NCBI GenBank assembly: GCA_944320495.1
Contig: CALUHR010000013.1
Span: 160,001 to 224,000 of the forward strand
Length of the DNA: 64,000 nt
Direction: 5' to 3'
DNA from: Candidatus Methanomethylophilaceae archaeon
Lineage (GTDB): Archaea > Thermoplasmatota > Thermoplasmata > Methanomassiliicoccales > Methanomethylophilaceae
In this document: positions 14,575-56,454 of the stretch, in pieces
How positions within the stretch are numbered: position 1 is the stretch's first letter
Layout: every line of letters begins with the position of its first letter
Position numbers and translations under genes: made by a program
Notes under the pieces: model-generated
The model's input: only the letters and a program-made list of their open reading frames with translations
Databases searched by the model: none
Told to the model about the DNA's origin: nothing

Positions 14575-15421
14575 TCGCCTCGCGATGGCTCGAAGAGCAC
14601 CTGAACGTCCTCACGTGACCCCTGCCCAGCATGGACCAGAGGACCTCCTCCGGCGCGTCTGTGTAGATGCTGTTGCCCAGCATGCACATGCCGGCATGGA
14701 ACCCGCGGGACCTGAGGCCGTCCAGGACGTCCGACATGCGGGACGACTCCAGACCGGTCTCGCGGGAGAAGCGGTTGGACGCGACGAACAGGTTCTCGTA
14801 GGTGGGATCCGCTATGAACCCGTCCAGGGTGTCGGCCGCCGCGTCACGGACGGCCTCCATCCTCCCGGGATCGGCCAGGACGTCGCCGGTCTCCATGACC
14901 GGCCCGAGCACCGCCAGTGTAATCCTGGGGATCGTGAACCCGGCGTTCCTGACGGCCCCGTGTGGCGGCAGTCCCGCCACCGTGCGTATCGGCACGTCCC
15001 TGCCGCCGACTATGGCGCTGACGTCCCCGAGCCCCCCTCCGCAGCGGACCTCCGCCACGTGTGCGGCGGAGAACGCCTCGAACCTGGGCATGCCCGTGAC
15101 ATCCGCTATGGCAAGACCGACGGCGATCGCTCCGGCGGCGCTCATGCCGAACCCCTGGCTCACCGGCAGGTCGTTGTCTATCGAGATGTCGAACCCCGTC
15201 CCGGGCGCCATGATCGAGGCCACCGTGCGGGTGACGGGTGCGTCGGACTCCTCGCCGTCCATCCTCACGATGACCTCGCCGTCGTCCCTCGGGACGACGT
15301 CGGCGCGGGCCCCGAGGCTCAGGCGTATGCCCACCCCGCGGGACCCCGTCGACATCACGTCGTAGGACCTGATCGGCTGGAAGATGCACGACACGTGCCC
15401 GGGGCAGAACGCTCTCGCCAT
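14558..15421 (-). CDS. poK: Pantoate kinase (GHMP family)
   Basis: AFCPGHVS, GSRGVGI, PVSQGFGMSAAG, GLGDV, MCMLGNSI; downstream of coaBC. Confidence 0.88.
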   Translation of the reverse strand: MARAFCPGHVSCIFQPIRSYDVMSTGSRGVGIRLSLGARADVVPRDDGEVIVRMDGEESDAPVTRTVASIMAPGTGFDISIDNDLPVSQGFGMSAAGAIAVGLAIADVTGMPRFEAFSAAHVAEVRCGGGLGDVSAIVGGRDVPIRTVAGLPPHGAVRNAGFTIPRITLAVLGPVMETGDVLADPGRMEAVRDAAADTLDGFIADPTYENLFVASNRFSRETGLESSRMSDVLDGLRSRGFHAGMCMLGNSIYTDAPEEVLWSMLGRGHVRTFRCSSSHREAIVQRA

Positions 15422-15423
15422 GA

Positions 15424-16611
15424 TCGCAGCTTCTTGATGCAGAGGTCGAGGATCGCGTCGGAGACCTCGGCCTTCGTACCGGTGATGGCCCTGTCCTCGG
15501 TCTCGGTCACGAGGATGGAGGAGGAGGTCGTCCTCCCGACCACGTCGATGTCGTTGGCCACCACGGCGGCGAGGTCGTACCTCTGCAGACGGCTCCTCGC
15601 CCTGTCGACCAGCTCCTGCCTCGTGAGACCCGACTCGGCCTTGAAGCCGACGACCACGGGGCACCTCTCCCTGATGAGGGGCAGCACCTTCGGGACCGGC
15701 CCCAGATCGAGGTCGAACCCCGCATCGCTGGATATCTTGCCGGACACAGGCTCCAGCGGGGTGAAGTCCGCCAGGGCGGCCGGGACGATGACCGCATCGT
15801 GGTCTATCTCCGGGACCATCCCCACGAGGTCCGACACGGTGGCGAACCTCCTGGTGGGGATGTAGTCGGGCAGCTGCACGCTGCATCCGCCCATCCACAG
15901 CTCCACGTCCGCACCCCTCTCGAAGGCCCTCCTGGCGAGCTCCACGCTCATGGTCCCGGACGAGCGGTTGGTGATGATCCTCATCGAGTCGATTGGCTCC
16001 TCGCTCCTGCCGCCGATGATCAGCAGGCGCTTGCCCTGCAGGTAGTTCCTGGAGAGCAGCTTGAACGTGGATGCGACGATCTCCTCGCGGGATGCGACCT
16101 TCGCCCTGCCGTCGGAGACGCGGGGGCCGATGAAGGTGACGCCCCACGCCTTTAGTCTGGCTATGTTCGCGGAGACCGCGGGGTTGGTGTACATGGAGTC
16201 GTGCATGGCCGGCGCGATGGCCACCGGGATCCCGGATCCGAGGGCGACGGTGGCGAAGGACGTCACCGGTGTGTCGTCGATGCCGTTGGCCAGCTTGGAC
16301 ACGGTGTTCGCAGTCGCCGGGTAGATGAGGAGCAGGTCGGCGGAGCGGGCGGCCATCATGGTGATGTGCTCGGTCCCGCCGGTGAGGTCCGTGACCGGCC
16401 TGTGGCCGCAGGCGAACTCCAGGGAGTCGGGCGTGACGAGCTTCTGGGCCTCGCGGGTCATCACGACCCTGACCTCCGCGCCGTGCCTGACCAGCTCCCT
16501 TATGGTGCCGAAGCACTCGACGGCTGCTATGCTCCCGGTGATGCCGATGACGACCGTCTTCCCCCTGAGCTTGGTGCTCTTCTCGCAGTAGATCTCCTCC
16601 GAAGGATGCAT
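15424..16611 (-). CDS. coaBC: Bifunctional phosphopantothenoylcysteine decarboxylase/ligase
   Basis: GITGSIAA, PATANT, APAMH..MY, ITNRSSG, AALADF, VGFKAE; CGA at 15424-15426 then 2 nt then the poK ATG; standard stop at 15355 lies inside poK. Confidence 0.94.
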
Positions 16612-16612
16612 C

Positions 16613-17206
16613 TCAAAGAACCTCCCGAATGATTTTCATGACGTCGGCCAGGACGTCCTCCCTGGGGCGGGAGGCGTCGACGACCTCGAAGCCGTACCTC
16701 TCCGCCAGCTCCAGGTAGCGCTCCCTGACCTGGGTGAGGAAGCGGAGCTCCTCGAACTTGCTCCCCTCCTCTCCCCTGGAGCCCACCCTGGCGAGGGCCT
16801 CCGCGGGGTCCATGTCCAGCAGGATGACCGCGTCAGGGATGCCGACGAACCGCTCGGAGAGGGTCTCTAGCCAGCCCTCGTCCGCGGAGTCCCCGTCCAG
16901 GGAGGCGGACTGGTAGGCGATGGTGGACGCGTAGTACCTGTCGCACAGCACGACGGAACCCTCCCCGACCCTGCGCATGATGCGGTCGGTGTGCTCGATG
17001 CGGTCGGCGACGAACAGCAGCGACTCGGCCCTCTGGGATATCCTCCCTGCGGCGCCTGAGCGTATCAGCGCGCCCACGCCGGTGTCGGTGGGCTCGAAGG
17101 TCACCTCCGCGTCGCGCCCCTCCGAACGGAGGATCTCCGCCGCGGACCTGCATGCGGTGGTCTTCCCGGTGCCGTCGATGCCCTCCAAGACTATGAACGC
17201 GCCCAT
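16613..17206 (-). CDS. tmk: Thymidylate kinase
   Basis: FIVLEGIDGTGKTT, LFVADR, LCDRY. Confidence 0.95.
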   Translation of the reverse strand: MGAFIVLEGIDGTGKTTACRSAAEILRSEGRDAEVTFEPTDTGVGALIRSGAAGRISQRAESLLFVADRIEHTDRIMRRVGEGSVVLCDRYYASTIAYQSASLDGDSADEGWLETLSERFVGIPDAVILLDMDPAEALARVGSRGEEGSKFEELRFLTQVRERYLELAERYGFEVVDASRPREDVLADVMKIIREVL

Positions 17207-17232
17207 GTCGGCGTTGTTATGCCCCGAGCGAT

Positions 17233-17640
17233 TTAAACCTTCATCAGTTCGACGCGCTCCCTCAGGAGCCTGACCGCCGAGTCCAGCGACTCGACGTCCT
17301 TGGAGTACGGCCTGCAGAGGACCGTCAGGTCCCTGCGCACCGTGTCGTCATAATCCACGCAGAGCGACTCCAGGTCCCGCCTCAGCGAATCCGCGAGGTT
17401 CCCTCCGCGCCTGTCCCAGTCCGTCAGGATCACGGCCGGCCTCCCCTCGCGCCAGACGTGCTCCGCGGCCTTCAGCGGCCCTCCGCCGGACTGGACGCAG
17501 TAGAACTCCCCCTCGATCCCCAGCGCCCTCAGGGCGTCGACGTCCTTCAGGCCCTCCACCAGGATCACGTGGTCCTCCGCCAGCTCCGAGAGCCTGGCCA
17601 GGCACTCCTCGATGGACTCGAGGCGCTCGGCGTCGTCCAT
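17233..17640 (-). CDS. Small Toprim-domain protein (RNase M5-like)
   Basis: ILVEGLKDVDAL, VILTDWDRRG, DVESL. Confidence 0.85.
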   Translation of the reverse strand: MDDAERLESIEECLARLSELAEDHVILVEGLKDVDALRALGIEGEFYCVQSGGGPLKAAEHVWREGRPAVILTDWDRRGGNLADSLRRDLESLCVDYDDTVRRDLTVLCRPYSKDVESLDSAVRLLRERVELMKV

Positions 17641-17932
17641 CGACGGCCCCCAGCGAGGCGAGGATGGGATCGGGGTCGCCGCGGATGCGGACGGTCTTCT
17701 GCCTGGACGTCATCCCCGAAGAGACCTCGCACCTGCATCCGGTCAGATCGGAGAAGAACCTGCAGACCTCCGCGTTAGCGCGTCCGTCGAGCGGCGGGGC
17801 GGAGACCCTCAGGACCATGCGCCTCCTCCACTCGTCGTAGCCGTCCGGACCGGGGCGGCTGGACCTGGGTGAGACGGACACATCGACCTCCACCCACCCG
17901 TCGCCGCGGCGGCAAACATCCTGGACCCTCAT
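17633..17932 (-). CDS. DUF167 (YggU-like) protein
   Basis: VSPRSS, VSAPPLDGRANAE, SGMTSRQK; CGA at 17633-17635 gives 99 aa and an ATGGACGA overlap with the Toprim start; standard code adds 95 out-of-frame aa. Confidence 0.88.
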
Positions 17933-18017: not shown

Positions 18018-18881
18018 ATGAGCCCCGCGGTCGACCCTATGACATTCGATGAGCTGTCCGAGCTCTACAGGGTCGAGATGAAGAGCGCATCCCTCTCGCA
18101 GCCGAGGAGGGACCTCTACAGGGCGATGGCGAACCTCCTGACCTCCCTGCGCCAGGAGTACGACCGCCAGATGTCGAAGGACCCGGACTCTGTCATGACC
18201 GAGGGCGCGGAGCAGCGCCGTAAGAAGGCGGACCGCCTGTGCAAGGACATCATGGTCGTGCGCACCAGGAAGATCTCCGCCATGGCCATCCGCGGAGCGG
18301 AGGGCGGGCGCAACGCGCTGGACTGCCTCACGGACGAGGAGCGCACCTACTACGACGGCATCCTGGAGCTCACCAGGCGCCAGCTTTCGGAGGTCGACAG
18401 GCTCAGGGGCAAGAGGGTCACGGTCGAGACGCGCATCGACGAGCCCCCGGCCAGGGACGTGCCGCCGGCTCCCGAGCCGGAACCGGAGGAGATCCCGCTG
18501 GACGCCGTCCCAATGGACGACGAGCCATTCGACGACATACCCGAGGAGGACCAGTTCATCCCGGACGACGAGCCGGTCCCCGAACCGGAACCTGCGGTCT
18601 CCGAGGAGCCCCCGGTCGCGGAGACCCCCGTTCACGGGCCCGAGCCGGTCCCCGAGCCCTCTACAGAGCCCTTGGCCGCGCCGGAGGAACCCTCGGACAC
18701 GACCGTTCGGGAAGATGACCTCTCCCCCGAGCTCATAAGGATCCTCGAGGACCTGCCGCCCTTCGCGGGACCTGACAGGGACTACAGCCTCGCGAAGGAG
18801 GACCTGGTCACCCTGCCGAGGGTCCTGGCGGACGTCCTCGTCAACGCCGGCAAGGCCACCCGCATCACGCCTACGCCCTGA
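18018..18881 (+). CDS. GINS15/51-type replication protein (A domain, long acidic Pro-rich linker, B domain)
   Basis: Helical N-domain with RTRKI and LTDEERTYY; C-terminal IRILEDLPPFAG...KEDLVTLP...LVNAGKA matches the GINS B-domain pattern; start uncertain (18003-18039). Confidence 0.75.
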   Translation: MSPAVDPMTFDELSELYRVEMKSASLSQPRRDLYRAMANLLTSLRQEYDRQMSKDPDSVMTEGAEQRRKKADRLCKDIMVVRTRKISAMAIRGAEGGRNALDCLTDEERTYYDGILELTRRQLSEVDRLRGKRVTVETRIDEPPARDVPPAPEPEPEEIPLDAVPMDDEPFDDIPEEDQFIPDDEPVPEPEPAVSEEPPVAETPVHGPEPVPEPSTEPLAAPEEPSDTTVREDDLSPELIRILEDLPPFAGPDRDYSLAKEDLVTLPRVLADVLVNAGKATRITPTP

Positions 18882-19629
18882 GCGTCCTGGAGTCCCCCAG
18901 GAACTCCAGACAATCGATGTTCAGGCGGCGTATGCCTGTTATCTCGGAGACGGTCTCCCTGGCGATGTCTGGCTCGTTGTTGGTCCTGCTCAGGTGCGCC
19001 AGGAAGATCTGGCGCCCGGAGTCGGTCATCGTGCGCCTGATCGCCTTTGCCGTGTCCACGTTGCACATGTGACCGTGGTCGCTGCCGATGAGCTGCTTCA
19101 GCTGCGGGGGATAGGGACCCTCGGCGAGCATCCTGGCGTCGTAGTTCGCCTCGATGACCGCGATGTCCGCCTCCTTGAGGGCGGCCTCGATCTGGAACGT
19201 CAGCTTCCCGGTGTCGGTGGCGAGGAGCACCTTCTTCCCGTCCACCTGCGTGTAGTAGGCGCACGGCTGGACGGCATTGTGGACCGTGGGCAGCGGTGTC
19301 ACGTGGAACTGGCCGATGTCGAAGCTCCCCGACGGGTCTATGGGGACATAGTCCACGCTCCCCAGGTTCAGTGCCGAGAACGTCGCCTCGTTGCACATGA
19401 CAGGCACACCAAGCTTCCTGGCAGTGGCGCCGGCGCCGCTGACATGGTCGCTGTGCTCATGCGTGACGAGGATGGCTTTGACCATCTCCTTGTCGACGCC
19501 CTCCTGCTCCATCTGTTTGAGGATCTTTTTGCAGCTGATGCCGGCGTCGATCATTATGGCCTCGCCGTCGCTCTCTATGACGGTGCAGTTCCCGTCGCTG
19601 CCGCTGGCGAGGACGTGTACCTCCAGCAT
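18871..19629 (-). CDS. Metallo-beta-lactamase fold hydrolase (YycJ/PhnP-like)
   Basis: LASGSDGN, THEHSDH, TDTG, IEANYD, AHLSRTNN; ends TAG followed by GCG TGA. Confidence 0.88.
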   Translation of the reverse strand: MLEVHVLASGSDGNCTVIESDGEAIMIDAGISCKKILKQMEQEGVDKEMVKAILVTHEHSDHVSGAGATARKLGVPVMCNEATFSALNLGSVDYVPIDPSGSFDIGQFHVTPLPTVHNAVQPCAYYTQVDGKKVLLATDTGKLTFQIEAALKEADIAVIEANYDARMLAEGPYPPQLKQLIGSDHGHMCNVDTAKAIRRTMTDSGRQIFLAHLSRTNNEPDIARETVSEITGIRRLNIDCLEFLGDSRTLRA

Positions 19630-19635
19630 CCCGCT

Positions 19636-20815: not shown

Positions 20816-22345
20816 TCGCAGGTCCTTCGCCATGTACGGCAGGTCGTACCCGTATCCGAGGGACGCGTAGTATCTCCTGACGCCCACCCCGCTCGTGACC
20901 CTGATCCTGCCGTACCCGCGCTCCCTTGCGAGGTCCTCGGCCCTGGCGACCAGCTCGCGGCCGAACCCGCGGTGCTGCCACTCCCCCTCGTCGCCAATCG
21001 ACGCGGCCTTCCCGAAGACCTTCAGCTCGCGGATGGTCGCGTTGGCGTCGAGCCTCAGGCGGGCGTATCCGATCAGGGAGTCCCTGTACTCGTAGGTGAT
21101 GAACAGCTCCGTGCCGCCGCAGGCCTCGTACTCGATCACCTTCGGCTCGGCGTCCGCCGGGTCCCTCAGGACCACGCCGGTGTGGCCGACCTCCCTGCAG
21201 CGGATGCACCTGCACGGGCGGCCCTCCGCACGCATGCGGTCCTCGACGAGCTGGCGGATGTTGCTGGTGGTTATGCCCGCGGCGATCTGCGGCGCGGGAA
21301 TGTCCCTCTGGATGCGCTGGATGCGCACGTACTCGGGGACGACGGACTTCATGTCGGCCAGCAGGCGGACGGCGGTCTCGGTGTCGTACGGCTCGTATTC
21401 CCCGGCCCTCCACATATCGTAGAGGCCGGTGCCATCGATCACGAGGGTCGTGTAGAACTTGAGCATGTCCGGACGGTACGCGGGGTCGTCGAACACCCTC
21501 CTGAAGCATTCCAGGTCGTGCTCCGGCGACGATCCCGGCAGTCCGGGCATGATGTGGTAGCAGACCTTCAGGCCGTGCTCCCTGCACTCGCGGGTACACC
21601 TGCGGACCTCTTCGGTCCCGTGGCCCCTGTCCACCCCCCTGAGTATGTCGTCATCGAGAATCTGCACGCCGAGCTCCACCCTTGTGGCCCCCAAGGCCAT
21701 GGCGCGCTCGATCTGCTCCGCCCCGAACACGTCCGGGCGGGTCTCGACGGTGAGCCCGACGCACCTGTGAGCGGAGGTCTCGTTCAGACGCTGCGCCTCC
21801 TCCAGCGTCCCCGAGTCGGTACCGTTCATGGCGTCGAAGCACCTGCGCACGAACCACTCCTGATAGTCGGCGTCGCGGCTGGTGAAGGTCCCGCCCATGA
21901 CGATGAGGTCGATCTTGTCGGTCGGATGGCCGATGTCCGTGAGCTGGCGTATGCGGTCGGTCACCTGCAGGAAGGGGTCGAAGTCGTTCCTTCCCGCGCG
22001 GCGTGCGGCCGGCTCCTTGCCCGTGTAGGACTGCGGGGAGCAGTTGCCCACCCCTCCGGGGCAGTAGGTGCACCTGCCGTGGGGGCAGTCGTGAGGAGAC
22101 GTCATCACGGCGACTACGGCCACGCCGGACATCGTGCGCATGGGCTTCTTGACCAGGAGCGGCAGCAGGAGGTCCCTGTCCTCCTCGCGGACGTTCGCCA
22201 GGATGCTGGAGTTGGGGGGCACGCCGGCGAGTCCGTACCTCTTGCAGAGCTTCAGCTTGAGGTTCTGCAGCTGGTCCCTGTCGCGGACGGTCCCGTCCCT
22301 CACCGCCTGGATGAGGTCGGCGGAGAGCTGTGAGACGTCATCCAT
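20816..22345 (-). CDS. elp3: Elp3 tRNA wobble-uridine radical SAM/acetyltransferase
   Basis: CPHGRCTYCPGG, MGGTF, ETRPD, HIMPGLPG, RIQRDIP, QHRGFG, SGVGVRRYY; CGA at 20816-20818 follows YMAKDL (509 aa); standard stop at 20723. Confidence 0.95.
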
Positions 22346-23135: not shown

Positions 23136-23648
23136 TCAGATCAGGTCCTTGAGCCTGTCGATGGCCTTCAGGATGCTGGCGTAAGGAATCGCGCGGGACA
23201 CCGGGATCGCCAGTATCTTCTCGATGGTGGGCGCCACGATGGGCGCGCACACGACTCCGAGGGCCCCGTCGCGCTCCGCGCGGACGGCTGCGATGATCGC
23301 GTCCTCCACCGTGGAGACGGGGTACTCGCGTATGCTGACCGTGAGGCCGTCCAGGTCTATGGTCTTCGGGAGGTTCTCGACGACCATGTTGCTCGCCACG
23401 ACGGCGATGAAATGGGACTCCTCCGGCTCCATTATGATCTTGAGGGATTTGATCACCTGGCGGACGGTGCGGAGGTTCGGCTCCCTCTTGTCCTCCAGGA
23501 TCTTGTACATCGTGCTCTGGGACACGCCGGAGATCTGGCAGAACTCGTTCAGGGACATGTTGAGCTCGTCCTCCAGGATGCTGCGGAAGGCCTTCTGGAA
23601 GCCTCCCTCCTCCCTCAGCATGCCGCTTATCAGATCAGATACTGTCAT
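23136..23648 (-). CDS. XRE/Cro-type HTH regulator, conserved archaeal
   Basis: MSLNEFCQISGVSQSTMYKILEDKREPNLRT; C-terminal VRAERDGALGVVCAPI. Confidence 0.8.
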   Translation of the reverse strand: MTVSDLISGMLREEGGFQKAFRSILEDELNMSLNEFCQISGVSQSTMYKILEDKREPNLRTVRQVIKSLKIIMEPEESHFIAVVASNMVVENLPKTIDLDGLTVSIREYPVSTVEDAIIAAVRAERDGALGVVCAPIVAPTIEKILAIPVSRAIPYASILKAIDRLKDLI

Positions 23649-24535
23649 CCCTTGGCCCCCTTGGCGAAGTCCGCGGCCTCCATGCCGGCGACACAGCCCT
23701 GGCCGACCGCCTTGGCGACCTGCCACGGCCTCCCGGTGACGTCCCCGCAGGCGAAGAGCCCGGGGACCCCCGCCACGCGGCAGGACGCATCGACCTTCAG
23801 GGTGTCGTCGATCTCGGGCATCGCGCCGAGGTCTAGCGCTATGTCCGCGGCCGACCTGGCGCCCAGCTCTATGAAGGCACCGTCCGTCGGGATCACTGTG
23901 CCGTCCTCCAGCGTCACTGACTCCACCCTCCCGTCCCCGTCTATGGAGACGGGCCTGGACCCGTGGACGATTGCGCCGGCCCCTTCCGCTCTCTTTGACG
24001 CGGCCTCGGTGGCCTTCAGGTCCCAGCGGACCCAGTGGGTCTCCGATGCGTACCCGGTCATGAGCTCGGCCGCGGCCGCGGCCTCGGAATCGTTGCCGAT
24101 GACGACGACGCGCCGTCCGCGGTAGAAGTTGCAGTCGCAGACCGCGCAGTAGCTGACGCCCTTGCCGAAGAGCTCCTTCTCGCCGGGAACGCCCAGCTTC
24201 AGGCGGGAGACCCCGGTGGCTATGACCACGGCCTTCGCCCTGACGGAGTCGCCGCCCTCCAGGCCGAGGACGAAAACACCGCCCTCGACGGATGCGGAAC
24301 CGACGTTCTCGGCCACGAACACCGCGCCGGTGGCCTCCGCCTGCTCCCTGCCGCGCTCCAGGAGGATGTCTCCGGACACGGGGCCGGCGCCGAAGTAGTT
24401 CTCCAGCTCGGTGCCGCTGATCGCGCTGCCCCCGGAGCGTCCGAGGACGACCGTCCTCGCCTTCTTCCTCGAGGACTGGATGGCCGCCTGGATGCCGGCG
24501 GGGCCGGCGCCTATGATCGCTACGTCGGCGTCCAT
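23645..24535 (-). CDS. trxB: Thioredoxin reductase
   Basis: IIGAGPAG, IATG, GVSYCAVCD, GLFACGDVTG. Confidence 0.9.
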   Translation of the reverse strand: MDADVAIIGAGPAGIQAAIQSSRKKARTVVLGRSGGSAISGTELENYFGAGPVSGDILLERGREQAEATGAVFVAENVGSASVEGGVFVLGLEGGDSVRAKAVVIATGVSRLKLGVPGEKELFGKGVSYCAVCDCNFYRGRRVVVIGNDSEAAAAAELMTGYASETHWVRWDLKATEAASKRAEGAGAIVHGSRPVSIDGDGRVESVTLEDGTVIPTDGAFIELGARSAADIALDLGAMPEIDDTLKVDASCRVAGVPGLFACGDVTGRPWQVAKAVGQGCVAGMEAADFAKGAKG

Positions 24536-24846
24536 CAGAGGGAGCTCACGTAGGAGACGAGGTCTTCCTTGGGCCTCAGACCGACGAGCGCGTCCACGAG
24601 GACCCTGTCCTTGAAGACCAGGAGCGTGGGGATGGCGTTGATGTTGAACCTGATGGCAATGGCCTGGTTGTCGTCGGTGTTGAGCTTGGCGAACGCGGCC
24701 TTGCCCTCGAGCTCAGCGGCAGCCTCGTCGACTATGGGGCCCATACGCCTGCAGGGTCCGCACCAGGGGGCCCAGCAGTCGATAACCGCGATGTGGTTGG
24801 ACTCCACGAAGGAGTCGAAATTAGTCTCGTTGAGTTCGGTCACCAT
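24535..24846 (-). CDS. trxA: Thioredoxin
   Basis: WAPWCGPC, IPTLLVFK; TGATG overlap with trxB. Confidence 0.93.
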   Translation of the reverse strand: MVTELNETNFDSFVESNHIAVIDCWAPWCGPCRRMGPIVDEAAAELEGKAAFAKLNTDDNQAIAIRFNINAIPTLLVFKDRVLVDALVGLRPKEDLVSYVSSL

Positions 24847-24897: not shown

Positions 24898-25479
24898 TCG
24901 GAGGATGTGCGTGCGCCTGGCGAGCTCCAGGTCCGGCATCTCCCCGATCCTGCGGGGGATGACGTCGAGGTTCTCGCCGTACAGCTCGGAGAGCTCCCAG
25001 TGAAGGGCCTCGACCCTGTCCGCGCCGCGGTCGGCGCCCTTGGAGCGGAGCTTCGACACGGAGTGCTCGTGGGAGACCACGCGGTTGTCGCTCACCATGT
25101 TGTCCGCATGGGCGACGATCTTCTCCTCGATGGTCCGGGGCATGTAGTCCGCCGGCGGGAGGCCCATCTCCGCCACGTCCTCGTCGTCCAGACCGGCGCC
25201 CGTGTGCTTGCGGACGATGTCCACCAGCGCGGGCGACAGCCCGTGCGCGGCGACGATCTGGGAGCCTATGTACGCGTGCATTATCGAATGGTCCACGGAG
25301 CGTCCGATGTCGTGGAGCAACGCCCCTGCCGTCACCAGGGCCCTGTCGGCGTCGATGCGCGTGAGCATCTCCTGCGCCACGGCGTTCACCGTGCAGCAGT
25401 GGATGATGACCCTGCGCTTGCATCCGGCGTCCTTCAGGAGCTCGATGCACTCCGCATCGCTGGGGATCGTGCTCGACAA
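24898..25479 (-). CDS. HD/HDIG domain protein
   Basis: IIHC, GALLHDIGR, HTGAG, EEKIVAHADN; TTG start; CGA at 24898-24900; standard stop at 24886. Confidence 0.85.
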
Positions 25480-25987
25480 CGGTCTTCCCCCTCTCGTTCG
25501 GGACCACCTCGAGGTGGCCCCCGCGGTCCTCGTAGAGGGCCTTCCCCTCTGTGAAGCGGTCCAGGAAGATTGCCAGCGCCGCTATCTCCGAGTGCGGCTG
25601 GTTGCCCACGGAGACGTTGAAATCCGCGCGCTGGTACACCTCGGCGGGCACCTTCTCGGCACCCACGACTATGAGTATGTCCTCGTCCCGCGGGATCTTG
25701 GGCAACGCCTCGTCGACCCTCTGCCCGTACATGGTCAGATGGACGACCTTCCCGGGGAAGTCCTTGATCTCCTGCTTCCAGGAGACCCCGGTCTTTATGG
25801 TGTAGTCCCCGCCGAACCTCTCCACGACGCTGCGGATGTTCTCCTCCAGCACCGGGTCCTCCGTGTCCACGAATATGCCTTTGGCACCGAGTGCGCGGGA
25901 GCTCAGGGCCACATGGGTGGTGACCCTCTTGTCCCGCTCCGGACGGTGGCCGATCCTCATTATCCAGATTCCGGCCAAATCCGTCAC
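25457..25987 (-). CDS. trm56: tRNA (cytidine-56-2'-O)-methyltransferase
   Basis: RIGHRPERDKRVTTHVAL, VHLTMYG, VVGAEKVP, NQPHSEIAALAIFLD; CGA at 25457-25459 gives 176 aa; standard code runs 212 further codons to 24821. Confidence 0.93.
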
Positions 25988-27209: not shown

Positions 27210-27303
27210 ACCTGGACTCCATCGGCTGCCCACAGTGCGGGCACATGGAGAACGGCATTATGTCCGATATCTCCGCGCCGCAGAACTCGCACCTGTCGCT
27301 CAT
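27136..27303 (-). CDS. Small zinc-ribbon protein
   Basis: MSDRCEFCGAE...MCPHCGQPM (two CxxC); 3' end overlaps the convergent gene by 74 nt, so the true end is uncertain. Confidence 0.55.
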   Translation of the reverse strand: MSDRCEFCGAEISDIMPFSMCPHCGQPMESRFSGEHPSEGRLSRPASSRIRPWRP

Positions 27304-27823
27304 CGCCCCTCCTCCCGAACACGCTGACGAAGCGCTCCGCACATCCTGGATCCGCCGGGACGGCGGACCTGAAGCGGATCGTGTCCAGCGCCTCCACATA
27401 GTACGGCCGGAGATCCGCGCTGGCACTGACCCTCGGTCCCATGGGCCCGCGCTCCGACAGCACCTAGAAGAACCCGTCGGTGGCCATGCCGCGGGGCGTC
27501 CCGTGCCCGCGCATGAAGGCCATGACCTGCCGCAGGGGATCGTCCACGGGACGGTTCATCGGGACCATCGCGAGGATCGTGCCATCGTATCCGCCCAGAC
27601 CGTCGAGGCAGTACTCCGGGTCGCCGTAGCCGATTCCGCGCATCACCGGCATCACCAGCGTGCGCTTGGTCAGCTCGTACGGGGACTCGAACCCGGCCAG
27701 CCCCTTGAAGCCGGGAGTGAAACGGCCGGACACGGCCGCCCCGCACATCCTGACGCCCATGGAGCGGTCCAGCTCGCGCACCGCACCCATGCACACCTCC
27801 GACAGTGGATTCCCGTGGATCAT
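27296..27823 (-). CDS. Hypothetical protein with in-frame TAG at 27464-27466 (candidate pyrrolysine), ending at CGA
   Basis: 119 codons, TAG, then 55 more in-frame codons (ATDGFF-TAG-VLSERG...DLRPYYVEALD), then CGA at 27296-27298 overlapping the next ATG. Confidence 0.6.
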
Positions 27824-28272: not shown

Positions 28273-29037
28273 ATGACCGGAACCTGCACCATCGTGATCC
28301 CGACGTACAACGAGGAGCGGAACATAGCGAACATAGCCAGGGCCATACGCGAGGCGTACCCCGACTACAGGATCCTCTTCATGGACGACAACTCCACGGA
28401 CAGGAGCCGCCAGGAGGTCGAGGCCCTGAACGACCCGCTCGTGACGTTCTACGTCCGCGACCCGGATGCCAGGGGGCTCGGTGCGTCCGTCCTCCAGGGT
28501 TTCGCGCTGGCGCAGACCGACTACGCCATGTGCATGGACTGCGACTTCCAGCACCCTGTGTCCGCGCTCGGAGGCCTCGTCGCCGAGATGGACAAGGGCG
28601 CTGACATCTGCGTCGGGCAGAGGAACAGCAGGATGTCCATGGGTTTCAAGAGGGCCATGGGGTCCGAGGTCGTCGAGGCGTTCTGCAAGGTCCAGTTCTG
28701 GGTGCACGGGAAGCAGACCACCAAGGACATGATGAGCGGGCTGTTCGCGCTCAGGTGCGATGTGTTCAGGCCAATCATCGAGAACAACTGGGACCAGTTC
28801 GAGCTCCGCGGATGGAAGGTCCTGATGGACCTGCTCAAGTTCGCCGACCGCAGGATGAGCGTCTCCTACTACAGATACGACTTCGGCACCCGCGCGGAGG
28901 GCGAGTCCCACCTCAACCCGAAGGTCCCGATCATGACCTTCCACCAGCTCTGGGGGTTCGGGAAGTGGTGCGCCAGGGTCGTCGCCAAGATCTACGGCGT
29001 GGACTACTACGAGATGTACCCCGCCGAGAGGAGACGA
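28273..29037 (+). CDS. GT2 polyprenol-phosphate mannosyltransferase-like glycosyltransferase
   Basis: IPTYNEERNI, DDNSTD, MDCDFQHP, RAEGESHL; CGA at 29035-29037 shares its A with the next ATG; standard stop at 29052. Confidence 0.9.
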
Positions 29038-29801
29038 TGTTCGCCGATGTGAACGGCATATCCCTCCGCTACGAGGTGAGGGGTTCCGGGGAGCCCGTGG
29101 TGCTCCTCGGGGGATTCGGCGCGAACGCGGGGTTCTGGGAGCCGATGCTCGGGGATCTGGACGGCTTCCGCATCATCACCATGGACAACCGCGGGGTCGG
29201 GAGCACGCGGTACGACGGAGAATTCTCGATATCCGACATGGCGGACGACGTCGACGCGCTCCTTGAACGTCTCGATGTCGGGGATGCGCACATTCTCGGA
29301 TGGTCCATGGGGTCCCAGATCGCCCAGTGCATAGCGGTACGGCATCCGGACAGGGTGAGGACGCTGACGCTCGTTTCCTCGTATCTCGGATTCCCCGCGA
29401 GGGCGGATTACATCCTCCTCGGTCTGACTCGCATGGCGCTCGAGGGCACGGCGCCGGAGGACTGCCTGGCGATGGCCGTGAACGCCCTGTGTCTCCCGGA
29501 GTCTACGTTCGAGGAGCTGAGGCGGAAGGGACTGGAGATGCCCGTGCCCGAGGACATGGAAGGCCCCGAGGGACTGATGGACCAGCTGGACGCCATGAGG
29601 GCGTACTCCGGCGAGGGACTGGAGAGCATCTCCATCCCCGCACTCGTGATCCATGGGAGAAGGGACGCCATGATCGAACCGGACAACGGCGCGGCGGTGG
29701 CGTCGAGGATCCGCGGGAGCGAGCTCCTCATGGTGGATGCGGGCCACAGCGTCCCGTTCGGGATGTACCGCGACAGGTTCCTGGGATTCATCGGCCAGCG
29801 A
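29037..29801 (+). CDS. Alpha/beta hydrolase
   Basis: DNRGVG, GWSMGS nucleophile elbow, HGRRD, AGHSV; CGA at 29799-29801; standard stop at 29933. Confidence 0.88.
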
Positions 29802-29805: not shown

Positions 29806-30222
29806 TCGGAGCCTCTTCCGCATCATCACGTGCGGACAGTACTCGTCGAGGTACTCGTCGCCGAACGCCTCGTACCCCAGCGTTTCGTAGAACCCCTTTG
29901 CGCGGACCTGAGCGGAGAGCAGCGATTCCCTGAACCCCATGGACCGGGCCACGTCCTCGGCCTCGGTCACCACCGCAGAGCCTATGCCCCTGCCGCGGTA
30001 CTCCCTGACCACGGCGATCCTGCCTATGTGGCATTCGCCGCCCTCTCCGGGGATGATGCGGCAGACAGCGACGGGGACGTCTCCGTCATAGAGTACGATG
30101 TGCTTCGAGATCGCGTCGTCATCGTCGAACTCGACCACGAAGCCCTGCTCCTCGACGAATACGTCGGTGCGTATGCGGACCTCGTCGTCGGAGATCGAAT
30201 CGGACACGACCGGGCGGAGCAT
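29806..30222 (-). CDS. GNAT N-acetyltransferase (ElaA/YjcF-like)
   Basis: IRTDVFVEEQG, IGRIAVVREYRGRGIG, AQVRAKGFYETLGY, HVMMRKRL then CGA at 29806-29808; standard stop at 29788. Confidence 0.9.
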
Positions 30223-30344
30223 CGCAGGGGCCTCCTCGCCATGATGCGTGGTTGTCCGTCCTCGGGGTGCTCCTCCTCGAACACCGCCCCGCGCGTGGCT
30301 TCGGAATCCGGAGTTGTGGCAGAAGGCGTCTCGAAACGGAACAT
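30222..30344 (-). CDS. Possible 40-aa ORF ending in a CGATG overlap with the GNAT start
   Basis: MFRFETPSATTPDSEATRGAVFEEEHPEDGQPRIMARRPL-CGA; no recognised motif. Confidence 0.25.
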
Positions 30345-33668: not shown

Positions 33669-34700
33669 TCGCTCGCGGAGAATCGCGTCCACCGCATCGG
33701 AGAACGGGACATCCCCGCCGACGCGGAATGTGCGGCACCCCAGACGGCGACCGAACTCCATGTCGGAGTCGCTGTCGCCGACCATCCACGACCTGGACGG
33801 GTCTATGCCGTACCTGGCCATGGCGGCGAGCCCCATGCCTATCTCCGGCTTGCGGCACGAGCAGTTCTCGTCCGGCCGGTGGGGGCAGTAGAAGATGTCG
33901 TCGATGCGCCCGCCCCCGGCCTCGACGGTGCGCCGGAGCTTGGAGTGGATGGCATCGAGGGTCGCGAGGTCGAAGTAGCCGCGGTTGAGCCCGGACTGGT
34001 TGGTTATCACTATGACCAGGTATCCTGCGCGGTTGAGCCTGGCGATCGCCTCCGGGACGTCGGGGTAGACCTCGAACTTGTCCGGGTCGTCGCAGTAGGG
34101 GACGTTCCTGGCGACGGTGTCGTCCCTGTCGATGAATACGGCTCGGCTGCCGAAGAGCTCCCTCTCGACGATGCCGGCCACGATGTGGCAGGCGCAGAGG
34201 TAGCCCTCCTGGACGTGGGGGGTCTCGGTGGTGGGGATGACGACCGCGTGGTCCGCGATCTCCCTCATCTTCCCGCAGTCGCCGGTGAAGGCGATGGTCA
34301 CGCCTCCGCGGGCCTTGGCCTCCTCCATCGCGAGGATCACGTTCTTGGAGTTGCCGGATGTGGAGAGCCCGACGAGGACGTCCCCCTTCCTGCAGATCCC
34401 CTCGACCTGCCTCTTGAACACGATGTCGTAGCTGTAGTCGTTCCCGATGGCGGTCACGGGGGCGATGTTGGACAGGCACACGCCGGGGAGCGCGGGACGC
34501 TCCATCATGTACCTGCCGGAGAACTCGGCGGCGATGTGCTGCGCGTCTGCGGACGAACCGCCGTTGCCGCAGAATATGACCTGATTGCCGTTGCGGAACG
34601 CATCCCTGATGATGTCCGCAGCTTTCCTGATCTGGGCGGGATCGATCGCGGAGATCGCCGCAGCCGCCTTCCCAAGCTCCGCCGTAATCGCGTCAGTCAT
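33669..34700 (-). CDS. gmhA: Fused phosphoheptose isomerase (GmhA) / heptose-bisphosphate phosphatase (GmhB)
   Basis: CGNGGSSADAQH, GNDYSY, STSGNS, HVQE; then DRDDT, ITNQSG, CPH..C.CRKP, MVGD; CGA at 33669-33671; standard stop at 33618. Confidence 0.92.
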
Positions 34701-35709
34701 TTGGATATCTCCAGGATGTCACGCCCTGGGGCTCGAACATGAAGTCGGTGACCTTCGCGCCCATCTTCCCGAGCTCCTGCGCGACATTGTACTTGCGGTC
34801 GTATTCGCATATGAAGTACATGAACCCGCCACCTCCGGCGCCGGTGACCTTGCCACCTATCGCGCCGGCCGACCGCGCGGCGGAGTACATCGCATCTATC
34901 TGCGGATTGGTGATCTTGTTGGAGAACTGCTTCTTGTAGGTCCAGGCCTCGTCGAGGATCTCCCCGGCGGTCCTGATGTCGCCCCTCTCCATGGCCACGT
35001 TCATGGCCTTCGCCAGCCCCTTGGTCCTGTCCAGGGCCTCCTCGTTCTGACCCTTGTTGAACTTGGAGACCTGGCTCTCGATGATGGAGGCGGACTCGCG
35101 GGTGTGGCCGATGTAGCACAGGAGCGAGCAGTACTGGAGTTCATTGACGGTGTCCGGGTCGATCCTGACGCGGTTGACGTTGACGCCGCTGCTGTTGAAG
35201 AGCATGTAGTTGAAACCGCCAAACACTGCCGCGTACTGGTCCTGCTTGCCTCCCTTGAGACCTATGTCCTCCCTCTCCAGCTTGTAGGCCAGGCTGGCCA
35301 TCTCGTGGCCGGTGAGCCTGATGTTCTGCCACTCGCACATGGCAGCGATGATGGAAACGATGACCGTCGACGAACCCCCGAGGCCGGATCCGGGAGGGGC
35401 CTCGGACTGCAGGAACATCTTGAATCCGTCCGTGACCTCGAAGTGGTTGGTCACGGCCTTGATGAGGTCCATGTTGCCGTCGAGCTTGAGCGGTCCGCCG
35501 TCGAGGGACGCCTCGTACTTCCCGTAGTCGGTGGAGTGGACAGACATGGAGTGGTCGTCGGTCGGGGTTATCGTGCAGTATGCATAGCGGTTGATGGTCG
35601 TGTTGAAGACCGCTCCGCCCTTCTTCGACGCGTACGGGTCGACGTCGGTGCCACCTCCCGCGAGGCCTATCCTCAGTGGCGCCCTAGCCCTGTAGTGCGT
35701 ACCATGCAT
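34693..35709 (-). CDS. hddA: D-glycero-alpha-D-manno-heptose 7-phosphate kinase-like GHMP kinase
   Basis: RAPLRIGLAGGGTDV, PPGSGLGGSS, GGKQDQY, GKVTGAGGGGF; coupled to gmhA-gmhB. Confidence 0.85.
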   Translation of the reverse strand: MHGTHYRARAPLRIGLAGGGTDVDPYASKKGGAVFNTTINRYAYCTITPTDDHSMSVHSTDYGKYEASLDGGPLKLDGNMDLIKAVTNHFEVTDGFKMFLQSEAPPGSGLGGSSTVIVSIIAAMCEWQNIRLTGHEMASLAYKLEREDIGLKGGKQDQYAAVFGGFNYMLFNSSGVNVNRVRIDPDTVNELQYCSLLCYIGHTRESASIIESQVSKFNKGQNEEALDRTKGLAKAMNVAMERGDIRTAGEILDEAWTYKKQFSNKITNPQIDAMYSAARSAGAIGGKVTGAGGGGFMYFICEYDRKYNVAQELGKMGAKVTDFMFEPQGVTSWRYPND

Positions 35710-52781: not shown

Positions 52782-53483
52782 TCACTCGTCAGCGGTGTTG
52801 TTCAGAAGGCCCCTGAACAGACATACATCCATGGGCGTCGTTATCTTGATGTTCTCGGGATTGCCCTCCACGGTGTGCAGGGCGCATCCATGACTCGTCA
52901 CTATCGTAGCGGAATCGATGCATGACGTCTGGCCGTTGGCTATGCATATCTCATAGTGCGATATTATCTCCCCGAGACGGAAGGTCTGGGGCGCACGGGC
53001 CATCTGGCACATGTTACGGTCCAGCACCTGCGTACCATCCCCGGATGCCAGGATCACCGTCTCCGTGCACGGGGACACCGTGATGGCGTTACCGAACTCT
53101 GCCGCCACCTGGAGATTCCTGCGGATCGTCTCCCTGCTGACCAGCGGTCTGACACCGTCATGGATCATGACAAGGGACTTCGGATCCAGTCCGGCATCCC
53201 TCATGGAGACCAGACCGTTGTAGATGGACATCTGCCCGGTCTCCCCGCCGGGGACTATGCTGATGACCTTGCGTATGCCGTGATCCGCGATCTGCTTCCT
53301 GAGCTCGTCGATCCAATCGGCGAGACAGACGACCTGGATGCCATCGATCTCGTCCATGCCGTCGAACAGCTCGAGCGTGTGGATGATGATGGACTTCCCA
53401 TTGACCTCTATGAACTGCTTCGGAACCGCCGAACTGTTCATGCGGACCCCGTGTCCGCCGGCGAATATGAGCACGTAATTCAG
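52782..53483 (-). CDS. IspD/TarI-family cytidylyltransferase; probable CTG start
   Basis: (M)NYVLIFAGGHGVRM...PKQF, IHDGVRPL, RAPQTF, NIKITTP.D. Confidence 0.88.
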   Translation of the reverse strand: MNYVLIFAGGHGVRMNSSAVPKQFIEVNGKSIIIHTLELFDGMDEIDGIQVVCLADWIDELRKQIADHGIRKVISIVPGGETGQMSIYNGLVSMRDAGLDPKSLVMIHDGVRPLVSRETIRRNLQVAAEFGNAITVSPCTETVILASGDGTQVLDRNMCQMARAPQTFRLGEIISHYEICIANGQTSCIDSATIVTSHGCALHTVEGNPENIKITTPMDVCLFRGLLNNTADE

Positions 53484-53598
53484 GTCATCACCCTCGCATC
53501 CAGGCCTGATGTCTATATCGGTCTGCGAGGAGCACGTTTACGTATCTATATAAAATACAATCGCACCGATAATCGGCGTTCTCGGAATCAAAAATATT

Positions 53599-53618
53599 GC
53601 AGGGGGGTGGCCCCCTGC
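53599..53618 (-). terminator. Hairpin plus T tract after malic enzyme gene
   Basis: GCAGGGGG-GTGG-CCCCCTGC; minus strand continues AATATTTTT. Confidence 0.55.
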
Positions 53619-53629
53619 GGTTTGTCAGC

Positions 53630-54988
53630 TCACTGGAGGGCGGAGCTGCAGTCCGGGATGTAGCCGTCCTTCATCATCTGGGCGGTGAGGTTCCTGGACC
53701 TGTTGATCATGAACTCGGCCCTGTCGAAGAGCTCCTGCCTGCTCAGCTTGAGCCTGGCGACTCCCTGCTCCTGGGCCTTCATGGCGACGGCGACGGCCTC
53801 CCTCGGGAAGACCTCGGCCTCGGCCATGGTCGGGATGATGTAGTCCTCGCTGATTCCCTTCTCCTCCGCGCAGGCGGCGAGCTCGCGGGCGGCGGCGATG
53901 CACATCTCGTCGGTGATGGTCTTGGCCCTCACGTCGAGCACTCCCCTGAAGATGGCGGGGAAGCCCATGGAGTTGTTGACCTGGTTGGGGAAGTCGGACC
54001 TGCCGGTGGCGAACACCTTGCATCCGTTCTCCTTGGCCTCCCAGGGCCACATCTCCGGGATCGGGTTGGCGGTGGCGAAGACGACCGGGTCGTCCGCCAT
54101 GAGCTTGACGTACTCGGCGGGGATGGTGCCGGGTCCGGGCTTGGATGCGGCGATGACGATGTCCGCGCCCTCCATGGCCTCCTTGATGCCTCCGGACTTT
54201 CCGGCCCCGTTGGTCTTCTCGCAGATCTCCCACTTCTGCCTGAAGCTGTCCTTGACGTCCTCCCTGGCGAGGTTCAGGATTCCCTTGGAGTCGCACATGC
54301 ACATGTGCTTGGGGCTGAATCCGGTGGCGAGGAGGAGCCTGGCGATGGCGATGGAGGCCGCTCCGGCGCCGATGACGGCGATCTGGGCGTCCTCGAGCTT
54401 CTTGCCGACGAGCTTCATGGCGTTGATGGCACCCGCGACCTCGACGGTGGCGGTTCCCTGCTGGTCATCATGCCAGACGGGGATCTTGCAGTCCCTCCTA
54501 AGCTCGTCGAGGATGTCGAAGCACTTGGGGTTCGAGATGTCCTCGAGGTTTATTCCTCCGAAGGAGGGGGCCAGGAGCCTGACGGTCTCGATGATCTTGT
54601 CGGGGTCCTTGGTGTCCAGGCAGATCGGGACGCAGTCCACGCCTCCGAGGTACTTGAACAGCATGGCCTTGCCCTCCATGACGGGCATGGCGGCCTCCGG
54701 CCCTATGTCACCGAGTCCGAGTACACGGGTACCATCGGACACGACGGCGACGGTGTTCCACTTGCAGGTGTGCTCGTACACCATGTCGGGGTTGGCGGCG
54801 ATGTCCTTGCAGGGCTCGGCGACTCCCGGGGAGTACCAGATGGCGAAGTCGTCGAACGACCTGACGCATGCCTTGGGCACGGTCTCGATCTTTCCGTGGT
54901 AGAACTTGTGCAGGACCATCGCGTCCTGTCCGGGCTTCTTCGCCTTCTCAAGGCGCTCCTCGACTGTCATGTTCATGTCGTATGCCAT
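53630..54988 (-). CDS. NAD(P)-dependent malic enzyme
   Basis: YSPGVAEPC, VVSDGTRVLGLGDIG, PVMEGKA, LEDI, HDDQQGT, GRSDFPNQVNN. Confidence 0.95.
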   Translation of the reverse strand: MAYDMNMTVEERLEKAKKPGQDAMVLHKFYHGKIETVPKACVRSFDDFAIWYSPGVAEPCKDIAANPDMVYEHTCKWNTVAVVSDGTRVLGLGDIGPEAAMPVMEGKAMLFKYLGGVDCVPICLDTKDPDKIIETVRLLAPSFGGINLEDISNPKCFDILDELRRDCKIPVWHDDQQGTATVEVAGAINAMKLVGKKLEDAQIAVIGAGAASIAIARLLLATGFSPKHMCMCDSKGILNLAREDVKDSFRQKWEICEKTNGAGKSGGIKEAMEGADIVIAASKPGPGTIPAEYVKLMADDPVVFATANPIPEMWPWEAKENGCKVFATGRSDFPNQVNNSMGFPAIFRGVLDVRAKTITDEMCIAAARELAACAEEKGISEDYIIPTMAEAEVFPREAVAVAMKAQEQGVARLKLSRQELFDRAEFMINRSRNLTAQMMKDGYIPDCSSALQ

Positions 54989-55071
54989 TTCTTGACCTCC
55001 ATAAACTCTGGAATCTACGAATTTCGTAGATTGACTGCGAAATCTAAGACGCACGATTGGCGTGCCCGTAT

Positions 55072-56454
55072 TTAATCGTTGACGGGAGCCCGACTATTCG
55101 AATCATCGCCTGGACGGCGCGAACGGATGGCGCGGAGAAGGTCGTCCCCGTGCATCTGCCACAGCACCATCACGATTCCGAGACACTGGAGAATCGAACC
55201 GAGCCCGAACTGGATGTTCCTCGGCGACAGACCGAGCAGGACCGGATCGTTCCACATGGTGAAGAACGACACCAGGGAGTCGACGTCGAACCATCCCTCC
55301 CAGACGCCCAGCGGGGTGAGGGTGGATGCATTGGACCCGAACACGCATATCACGGCGCCGACGGCCATGATTTTCCAGGACAGTATGAACCTGCGCTCCT
55401 CCGCCGCGATCCAGTATGCCAGGAACGGCACGAGGACGACCATGTACTGCGTGGTCGGCGGATAAACGAGGACCAGCGCCGAGATCAGGAGGCACGACTT
55501 CATCAGCACCCTCGTCGGATCGCCGTCCCTGTTGCGGTACATCACCACGGCCGCATACGCGGATATCACTAGAACGATCGCATAGACGATGATCCTGGAG
55601 AACCCTATGACCGTGTCGAGGAGGGAGCTGTCCACTCCGGACCCGGTGCGGTCGCTGAGGAACTGGAAGCATTCCTCTATGTTGCCCGCCAGGATCTGAG
55701 GCGCGAAGATGATCGCGGCCATCGCCCCGGCACCCACGGCCGCGAGGACCACGTGGGAGACGGCGCGCCTGCGGTCGTCCCTGTTGCGGACGAGGATGTA
55801 CGCGACCAGCACGAATATGAGGAACGCCGGGAAGAACTTGGTCAGGACCGCCAGAGAGAAGGTCATGCCGGCGATGAGCGGGTGGTCCTTCCTGAGCAGG
55901 ATGACCGTGAGCACGGCGAACATCGCCGATATCGTGTCGGGCATGGCGATGATGCCCGTGGACGCCAGGAGAACCGGCGAGAGGAATGCCAGTGCGAATC
56001 CGAGGACCGCCTTGCGGTCGTCTCCGGTGACGTCCCTCACCAGATACCATACGGCGAAGGCCAGCGCCGCGTCGAAGACGTAGAGCGGCACCTTCACCGA
56101 GTACAGGAACGCGACGGACGGGATCGTGGAGCTGAAGTACTGGCCCATCCCCTCGATCGGGATAATCTCCGCGACCTTCACGGCGACCTCGCCGAGATTG
56201 AGCAGCGCATCCTGCAGCACAGCCACCAGCCCCAGGATGTACCCCCACACCGGCGTGTAGTAGTAGCCCTCCACCCCGTAGAGGCCCTGGCCGATCTCGA
56301 TGTTCCTTATGACGAGGGCCCAGTACTCCGAGTCGTAGACTATGGACAGAGGGGCGATGGCGATCCTGATCAGGATCCCAACTACGAGGATCAGAAGCAA
56401 CGGATGCCTGACGTTGGCGATGCGGTCGCACACCTTTGAGAGGACCTCGGACAC
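55072..56454 (-). CDS. GT-C-like membrane glycosyltransferase, paralogue of 51519-52772
   Basis: GQGLYGVEGYYYTPVWGY, LTKFFP, TTQY; GTG start. Confidence 0.65.
   Translation of the reverse strand: MSEVLSKVCDRIANVRHPLLLILVVGILIRIAIAPLSIVYDSEYWALVIRNIEIGQGLYGVEGYYYTPVWGYILGLVAVLQDALLNLGEVAVKVAEIIPIEGMGQYFSSTIPSVAFLYSVKVPLYVFDAALAFAVWYLVRDVTGDDRKAVLGFALAFLSPVLLASTGIIAMPDTISAMFAVLTVILLRKDHPLIAGMTFSLAVLTKFFPAFLIFVLVAYILVRNRDDRRRAVSHVVLAAVGAGAMAAIIFAPQILAGNIEECFQFLSDRTGSGVDSSLLDTVIGFSRIIVYAIVLVISAYAAVVMYRNRDGDPTRVLMKSCLLISALVLVYPPTTQYMVVLVPFLAYWIAAEERRFILSWKIMAVGAVICVFGSNASTLTPLGVWEGWFDVDSLVSFFTMWNDPVLLGLSPRNIQFGLGSILQCLGIVMVLWQMHGDDLLRAIRSRRPGDDSNSRAPVND

Follow-up and report, generated by a model that had tools for sequence, protein, structure and literature searches.

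In the genome of a Candidatus Methanomethylophilaceae archaeon (assembly of 1.77 Mb, 62% GC, 14 contigs; genome code G000), a stretch of 64,000 nucleotides (C13:160001-224000, henceforth called the window) was analysed for the use of the codon CGA at gene junctions. CGA is most probably a fourth stop codon of this genome (we put the probability at about 0.85), and because it serves as a stop, it takes part in the same kinds of stop-start overlap as TGA where genes adjoin within operons. The cause is general, i.e., CGA is a stop throughout G000 and not a device specific to coupling. The original prediction, made from the letters of the window, had listed CGA in overlaps of the kind known from translational coupling, and had proposed that selection for termination and reinitiation treats CGA like TGA. 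The release factor aRF1 of G000 was 91% identical to that of Candidatus Methanoprimaticola sp. MG2, and its close matches all came from Methanomethylophilaceae/Methanomassiliicoccales metagenome-assembled genomes from animal guts.

Genes were called with a four-stop model (TGA, CGA, TAA, TAG) and, for comparison, with a three-stop model. The four-stop caller returned 1693 genes (TGA 1204, CGA 415, TAA 54, and TAG 20), and the three-stop caller 1555 genes with a lower total coding score. In long open reading frames (ORFs) with the coding signature of GC3 (GC content at third codon positions), in-frame CGA was found 17-19 times per decile in the middle of the ORF, compared to about 104 times for CGG, and was concentrated at the ends. 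When ORFs were aligned on the first in-frame CGA of their second half (n = 421), GC3 dropped past it from 0.80 to 0.59, in the same way as past TGA (0.80 to 0.58), and remained at about 0.80 past CGG, CGT, or AGA. Only 48 of 158,534 mid-gene codons were CGA (0.3 per 1000), and CGA was almost absent from conserved sense positions, as a reassigned codon should be. It was located instead where orthologues carry standard stops. In 200 kb of the genome G015, orthologous C-termini were available for 43 CGA-ended genes. The stop of the orthologue was TGA in 37 cases, TAA in three, TAG in one, and CGA in two, and in 32 cases it lay no more than two codons from where it was expected. The same pattern was obtained with G013 and G004. 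Relatives were sampled over 100-200 kb per genome, with G018 as the closest relative and G015, G013, and G004 as comparison genomes of the same genus.

Two sets of apparent read-through candidates were discarded. In tblastn searches, 43 of 131 high-scoring segment pairs appeared to cross a CGA, and most of these had a stop or CGA in the relative at the site or within a few residues of it. These crossings were caused by DNA-level conservation of the overlapping next gene, and only aRF1 and a GmhA-GmhB fusion (both described below) survived. A NifH-like and a NifD-like gene (cfbC/cfbD type, F430 synthesis), considered as a read-through fusion, are same-frame neighbours with a start 16 codons past the CGA.

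The comparison of CGA-to-start distances that had been proposed along with the original prediction was performed on confident genes by taking the first in-frame copy of a given codon past the midpoint and determining its distance to the nearest other called start. CGA resembled TGA and not CGG or other rare sense codons, so that the outcome named beforehand as speaking against the prediction did not occur. A start was present within -20 to +2 nucleotides (nt) in 23.6% of cases for TGA and 18.5% for CGA, compared to 0.9% for CGG, 1.0% for CGT, 0.0% for CGC, and at most 5% for every control. Among in-frame codons of the form NNA, CGA accounted for 0.6% inside genes versus 20% where the A was the A of a downstream ATG (binomial P ~3e-55). 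Sense NNA codons at this junction position were followed by TGA in 159 cases and by another codon in 25, versus 14 and 32 cases for CGA (P 2e-13); the few control hits of sense NNA codons arise because these are the last sense codon of ATGA junctions. For junction-position CGAs without a following TGA, the continuations under the standard prokaryotic code (NCBI table 11) reached 96 codons.

At same-strand junctions, the stop overlapped the next start in 83 of 247 CGA-ended genes (34%) and in 311 of 887 TGA-ended genes (35%; P = 0.71). The TGA junctions comprised 251 ATGA, 19 TGATG, and 12 ATGnnTGA overlaps. ATGA cannot be built with CGA, and the load is therefore shifted to CGATG (50 junctions, 20%) and to longer overlaps, with eight ATGnnCGA overlaps of 8 nt, seven overlaps of 14 nt, and 11-nt overlaps also among the leading forms. 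In the overlap histogram, the spike at d = +2 stood far above the adjacent spacings. All starts at CGATG junctions were ATG, and 4-mers resembling the Shine-Dalgarno (SD) motif preceded 88% of them, compared to 68% of the starts at ATGA junctions and 32% of starts located more than 30 nt from an upstream stop. The overlaps of G000 are like the coupling overlaps of other prokaryotes (ATGA, TGATG, and ATGnnTGA) in their geometries, in their overall frequency, and in the location of the SD motif inside the 3' end of the upstream gene, and orthologous junctions of G000 likewise retain the overlap. They differ in that the stop is CGA, the 4-nt ATGA form is impossible, and the 1-nt CGATG form dominates.

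How the junctions evolved was assessed from 186 pairs of orthologous junctions, with three genus members for comparison. The form xGATG was found 14 times in G000 and 16 times in the relatives, and read CGATG in 11 of the 14 and in none of the 16. In the 11 comparisons with CGATG, the relative had TGATG seven times, ATGA twice, and a spaced junction twice; in the sampled orthologues, CGATG thus originated mostly by a T-to-C change of an ancestral TGATG. At one junction, G000 has CGATG and G015 TGATG, and a genome of another family has TAATG. At another, GTGA in G015 became CGATG in G000 with the start shifted by one codon and the overlap kept, and at two junctions the final sense codon of an ATGA junction turned into CGA. 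The overlap is kept while the stop changes from TAA or TGA to CGA, in what are few comparisons. Selection for coupling is a plausible explanation of these sequence patterns.

The alternative that survives best also takes CGA as a stop, but regards the junction pattern as a passive by-product of near-neutral T-to-C drift under GC pressure at densely packed sites, where U at the +4 position makes CGA equal to TGA. We consider this possible, if somewhat doubtful. It agrees with the similar share of xGATG in G000 and its relatives, in which the first base alone differs, and with the dependence of CGA on its context. Among stops with a T that is free to change (i.e., excluding ATGA), the share of CGA was 28% overall and 72% at xGATG junctions (odds ratio 6.7, P 2e-13). 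By context, it amounted to 0.44 with T at +4, 0.13 with A at +4, 0.01 before AA, and 0.59 before TG, and T was present at +4 of 54% of CGA stops versus 29% of TGA stops; this suggests a tetranucleotide stop signal, CGAU. Gene ends that abut without a gap (xGATCy) were found in 29 of 249 convergent pairs, and 28 of these included CGA (CGATCG or TGATCG); in G015, TGATCA was often found at the orthologous abutting sites. At such back-to-back stops, CGA had a share of ~71%, and since reinitiation is impossible there, part of the enrichment has to be a context effect. Drift does not account as well for the lower share of CGA where an xGATG string lacks a called start (48% versus 72% with one, P = 0.002), the spike at d = +2, the near-universal SD motifs at CGATG starts, or the GTGA-to-CGATG junction that retained its overlap while the start moved. 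The enrichment is therefore in part due to context (U at +4 and dense packing) and in part junction-specific.

Several points weigh against the reading of CGA as a stop that shares the overlap geometries of TGA. The excess at xGATG junctions could arise from context-dependent neutrality without any coupling selection, and peptide release at CGA is inferred from sequence alone. Genes were called with a home-made caller of which the start choices are approximate, and the relatives are phylogenetically dependent rather than independent samples. The gene for the cognate tRNA-Arg(UCG), of which the loss would be expected upon reassignment, is retained in G000 (C13:413317-413390). Moreover, at least three genes (aRF1, GmhA-GmhB, and a flavodoxin-like gene) appear to need CGA as a sense codon, so that by this evidence CGA is not a pure stop.

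The sole aRF1 gene found with PF03464 (C2:85936-87165, minus strand) has a single in-frame CGA at codon 78, and this codon is CGA in 18 of 19 genus members examined. In other genera, the single CGA is located at codon 11, 25, 50, or 78, and outgroup families have one to four CGAs at varying positions, none of them at codon 78. The NIKS and YxCxxxF motifs of the protein are intact, with genus-specific substitutions flanking NIKS, and a G-to-S exchange in the GTS-loop-like motif (GTx loop), giving RGRSTE, is present in G000 and G018 only, all others having RGRGTE. The aRF1 sequences of G000 and G018 are 100% identical, and G000 is the heaviest user of CGA stops among the genomes sampled. A release-factor gene with a conserved early in-frame copy of the codon on which its product would terminate is reminiscent of bacterial prfB, which is autoregulated by an in-frame UGA and a +1 frameshift; in contrast to prfB, the aRF1 case is predicted to use read-through by tRNA-Arg.

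The fusion of GmhA (SIS) and GmhB (HAD) carries its CGA in the linker, at codon 186. This codon is CGA in six genus members (including G000 and G013). Of 25 genomes from outside the genus, 24 have AAG, AAA, or AGA here, and the remaining one has GCC. In G000, no start codon was found between the CGA and HAD motif I, which means that the HAD half could be produced only via read-through of the CGA. The site is thus probably a programmed read-through site and not a terminal stop. Both aRF1 and GmhA-GmhB therefore have what is expected of read-through, a conserved in-frame stop inside a gene with a needed downstream part. The flavodoxin-like gene, in which the domain match extends across the CGA, would be either a further read-through gene or a recent pseudogene. 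The base after the CGAs of this sense type is C or G.

A tRNA-Arg(UCG) was recovered from 11 genus members, always with a mismatch at 31:39 (A:A, U:C, or C:A), G37, and a short D-loop; that of G024, an outgroup genome from another family, has a regular anticodon stem of 5 bp and A37. No tRNA-Arg(UCG) was found by blastn in seven genus members including two complete genomes, in which it is either absent or diverged. These features point to a leaky stop, strongest as CGAU and presumably set by a competition between aRF1 and the weakened tRNA. In such a mechanism, aRF1 would read CGA in competition with tRNA-Arg(UCG), and termination would be best with U at +4, which CGAUG always supplies. A ribosome released at CGA would then reinitiate at the overlapping start with its preceding SD motif, as after TGA, and the level of aRF1 may be self-tuned via its own in-frame CGA. 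That the CGA stop is fully built into the operon architecture argues for an efficient terminator in the CGAU context and not for a tolerated defect.

It is improbable that CGA is instead unassigned and hard to decode, with stalled ribosomes being resolved by rescue of the aPelota/ABCE1 type or by slow, non-specific action of aRF1 and without dedicated stop recognition. The divergent tRNA-Arg(UCG) and the unchanged NIKS and YxCxxxF motifs of aRF1 would fit such stalling, and yeast eRF1/eRF3 can act on rare CGA codons according to one report (PMC7379694). However, a quarter of all genes, many of them housekeeping genes, end solely at CGA, which would make routine stalling costly, and the conserved single CGA of aRF1 suggests feedback through the release factor itself. 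C-to-U editing of mRNA, by which CGA would become UGA under a standard genetic code, is more unlikely still. CGA and TGA do differ by C/T alone and interchange at orthologous stops, but CGA is purged from gene bodies, so that every CGA would need to be edited, which is functionally a code change, and the conserved sense CGAs of aRF1 and GmhA-GmhB would have to escape. To our knowledge, no C-to-U editing of mRNA has been described in archaea. That CGA is an ordinary rare arginine codon, with CGATG and ATGnnCGA arising by chance in a genome of 62% GC, can be dismissed, since the control-codon tests, the collapse of GC3 past CGA, the orthologous stops, and the binomial test all refute it, even though the CGA trinucleotide is frequent (97,784 copies on both strands) and one of the sites originally listed (30224) is indeed a chance CGATG.

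The spread of the trait was determined from in-frame CGA codons in eight genomes of five Methanomethylophilaceae genera, with G024 as the outgroup. In aligned coding sequence, CGA was found at 0.02-0.04 per 1000 codons in G015, G013, and G004 and at 0.05-0.65 per 1000 in G089, G046, G034, and G039, each representing a further genus of the family, in which a few genes are CGA-ended; G089 is a complete genome of 1,666,795 bp (genus g17). Of the seven family genomes other than G000, none with more than two in-frame CGAs had CGA aligned with arginine. In G024, CGA occurred at 1.07 per 1000 and was arginine-aligned like other arginine codons. Genes ending at CGA made up ~25% in G000, 7% in G013, 5% in G004, 1% in G015, and 1-5% in the other genera. 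By these counts, the loss of sense CGA looks family-wide, frequent termination at CGA seems particular to the high-GC lineage of G000, and the code change seems to be older than the genus. We consider it more likely than not that CGA is a context-dependent fourth stop across the whole of the Methanomethylophilaceae, including complete and cultured genomes, where aRF1 would compete with a deliberately weakened tRNA-Arg(UCG) and be self-tuned by its early CGA. Termination at CGA with U at +4 would then be efficient enough for reinitiation at CGAUG, and in the high-GC lineage of G000, CGA would have replaced TGA at most junctions with a T free to change.

Sense codons reassigned to stops are known from organelles (NCBI tables 2, 22, and 23), i.e., AGA/AGG in vertebrate, TCA in Scenedesmus, and TTA in Thraustochytrium mitochondria. 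As in these, the sense codon vanishes from coding sequence and marks gene ends; unlike these, the case of G000 concerns the chromosome of a free-living archaeon, with about 25% of ~1700 genes terminating at CGA, a cognate tRNA still encoded, and a small number of genes that need CGA as sense. Context-dependent or ambiguous stop codons occur in the nuclear codes of Condylostoma and Blastocrithidia. The likeness lies in one codon having two meanings by context and in the involvement of a tRNA with an altered anticodon stem; in G000, by contrast, a sense codon gains a stop meaning, and the odd tRNA-Arg(UCG) is the cognate one and may be weakened instead of empowered. In one reported case (PMC13092985), a tRNA-Trp with a 4-bp anticodon stem reads UGA. 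CGA has also been considered in two Njordarchaeales assemblies, for which a preprint (Melnykov 2026, 10.64898/2026.04.02.715157), in its accessible part, reports that CGA is absent from genes covered by hidden Markov models and "possibly a stop", so that CGA has no inferable sense meaning in these archaea either. They belong to another phylum, lack tRNA-UCG, and have CGG reassigned to Trp, and the same part of the preprint gives no evidence from gene ends and does not mention Methanomethylophilaceae.

Full-text searches of the open-access literature found no CGA stop described for Methanomethylophilaceae and no sense-to-stop codon described for any cellular, non-organellar genome. New here are the controlled census of junctions, the orthologue series from TAATG via TGATG to CGATG, the context dependence, the back-to-back CGATCG ends, the defect in the anticodon stem of the tRNA, and the signs of a family-wide loss of sense CGA. 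If true, it would be the first change of the genetic code from sense to stop in any free-living organism, and annotation of these gut methanogens with table 11 would be wrong for up to a quarter of genes: proteins would be extended spuriously at the C-terminus by as much as hundreds of residues, long overlaps would be called that do not exist, and genes further downstream would be overlooked. The family would also allow study of how the decoding of one codon is divided between a release factor and a crippled tRNA. Methanomethylophilaceae are a source of PylRS/tRNA-Pyl pairs for genetic-code expansion, so that the decoding rules of the family are of practical interest.

Within the window, junctions were judged by gene calls, codon-usage coding scores, and Pfam matches (Table 1). 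All motif strings quoted in the original prediction were found where it had placed them, and its four TGA comparison sites (24535, 47664, 22345, and 34700) were correct. Five of its seven CGA examples lie at true junctions between genes of the same strand; 30224 does not, and 27303 is no more than a possible junction. The label "Toprim" for the gene at 17233..17640 was not supported, as this gene had no match to any Pfam family.

Table 1 Features discussed in the text. Coordinates are window positions unless preceded by a contig code (C)
Feature	Coordinates	Strand	Details
coaBC to GHMP kinase	15419..15426	-	CGA 15426-15424 ends coaBC (15424..16611, 395 amino acids); TC spacer; ATG 15421-15419
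GHMP-kinase gene (pantoate-kinase-like)	14558..15421	-	Downstream of coaBC
DUF167 ATGnnCGA, 8-nt overlap	17633..17640	-	DUF167 gene 17633..17932 (99 amino acids), CGA 17635-17633; next gene 17233..17640, ATG 17640
aTrm56 to HD-domain gene, 23-nt overlap	25457..25479	-	aTrm56 25457..25960, CGA 25459-25457; HD gene 24898..25479; absent from the original prediction
GT2 CGATG alpha/beta-hydrolase, 1-nt overlap	29035..29039	+	GT2 28273..29037 ends with CGA; hydrolase 29037..29801, ATG 29037
14-nt overlap	51519..51532	-	GT87-like membrane-protein gene 51519..52724, CGA 51521-51519; next gene 50522..51532 (also CGA-ended), ATG 51532
GTGnnCGA, 8-nt overlap	56447..56454	-	Gene 56447..57469, CGA 56449-56447; GT87-family gene (Pfam) 55072..56454, GTG 56454
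CGATG at GNAT gene start (29806..30222), no gene junction	30220..30224	-	Upstream 40-codon ORF non-coding
CGATGAGCGA, possible junction of two 55-codon ORFs, downstream one zinc-ribbon-like	27296..27305	-	Coding score, Pfam
TGATG comparison junction	24535..24537	-	24535..24846 into 23645..24535
TGATG comparison junction	47664..47666	-	47664..48578 into 46660..47664
ATGnnTGA comparison junction	22338..22345	-	Gene calls
ATGnnTGA comparison junction	34693..34700	-	34693..35709 into gmhA-gmhB ORF
CGATCG, convergent gene ends without gap	46657..46662	both	45307..46659 (+) and 46660..47664 (-), each CGA-ended
GmhA (SIS)-GmhB (HAD) fusion ORF, in-frame CGA at codon 186	ORF 33669..34700, CGA 34143..34145	-	Pfam SIS_2 17-140, HAD 199-329
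Flavodoxin-like gene, in-frame CGA at codon 119, followed by C	C8:55331-55837	+	Flavodoxin_4 profile positions 10-152 of 155 span the CGA
NifH-like and NifD-like genes	C5:79784-81901	-	CGA between them; table 11 would join them as a 706-amino-acid ORF
TAG-ended genes in the window	18871-19629, 27464-27823, 61868-62401	-	Gene calls

The end of coaBC is CGA in three species besides G000 and TGA in three others, and among genus members the junction was TGA-TC-ATG or TGA-CC-ATG three times, CGA-TC-ATG once, and CGATG once. In the DUF167 gene, the Pfam domain stops at residue 84 of 99, and the table-11 continuation of 94 codons scored -0.95 per codon with a GC3 of 0.43; the terminal CGA is kept in six relatives, one of which has a tandem CGA-TGA. 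Similarly, the Trm56 domain of aTrm56 ends at residue 162 of 167, and table 11 would append 212 codons. The alpha/beta-hydrolase gene is itself CGA-ended and has GGAGG ahead of its ATG, and its junction with GT2 is kept in G018. For the GT87-like membrane-protein gene, the coding score was +0.44 per codon ahead of the CGA and -1.36 past it, and the table-11 tail of the gene at 56447..57469, a junction also kept in G018, comprised 447 codons with a score of -1.13 per codon and a GC3 of 0.40. Between 48 and 57 kb, DNA synteny was limited to G018, with no alignment to more distant genomes, as the region is a variable one devoted to glycosylation. Support for the junctions at 51532 and 56454 hence comes from coding potential and G018. 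The 40-codon ORF upstream of the GNAT gene scored -1.9, had no Pfam match, and begins 26 nt past a tRNA-Pro gene. The two 55-codon ORFs at 27296..27305 scored +7.7 and -20.2 with sub-threshold zinc-ribbon matches only in Pfam, and in another frame the site at 27303-27296 reads CGA-TGA. Of the three more distant genus members that were aligned at 24535, two have kept the TGATG.

The order Methanomassiliicoccales is known for pyrrolysine. The TAG "read-through" that appeared in the first GC3 analysis was rejected, as the pattern of GC1 and GC2 (first and second codon positions) identified the ORFs concerned as antisense shadows of real genes. TAG ends just 20 genes genome-wide, and most long TAG-ended ORFs are such antisense shadows.

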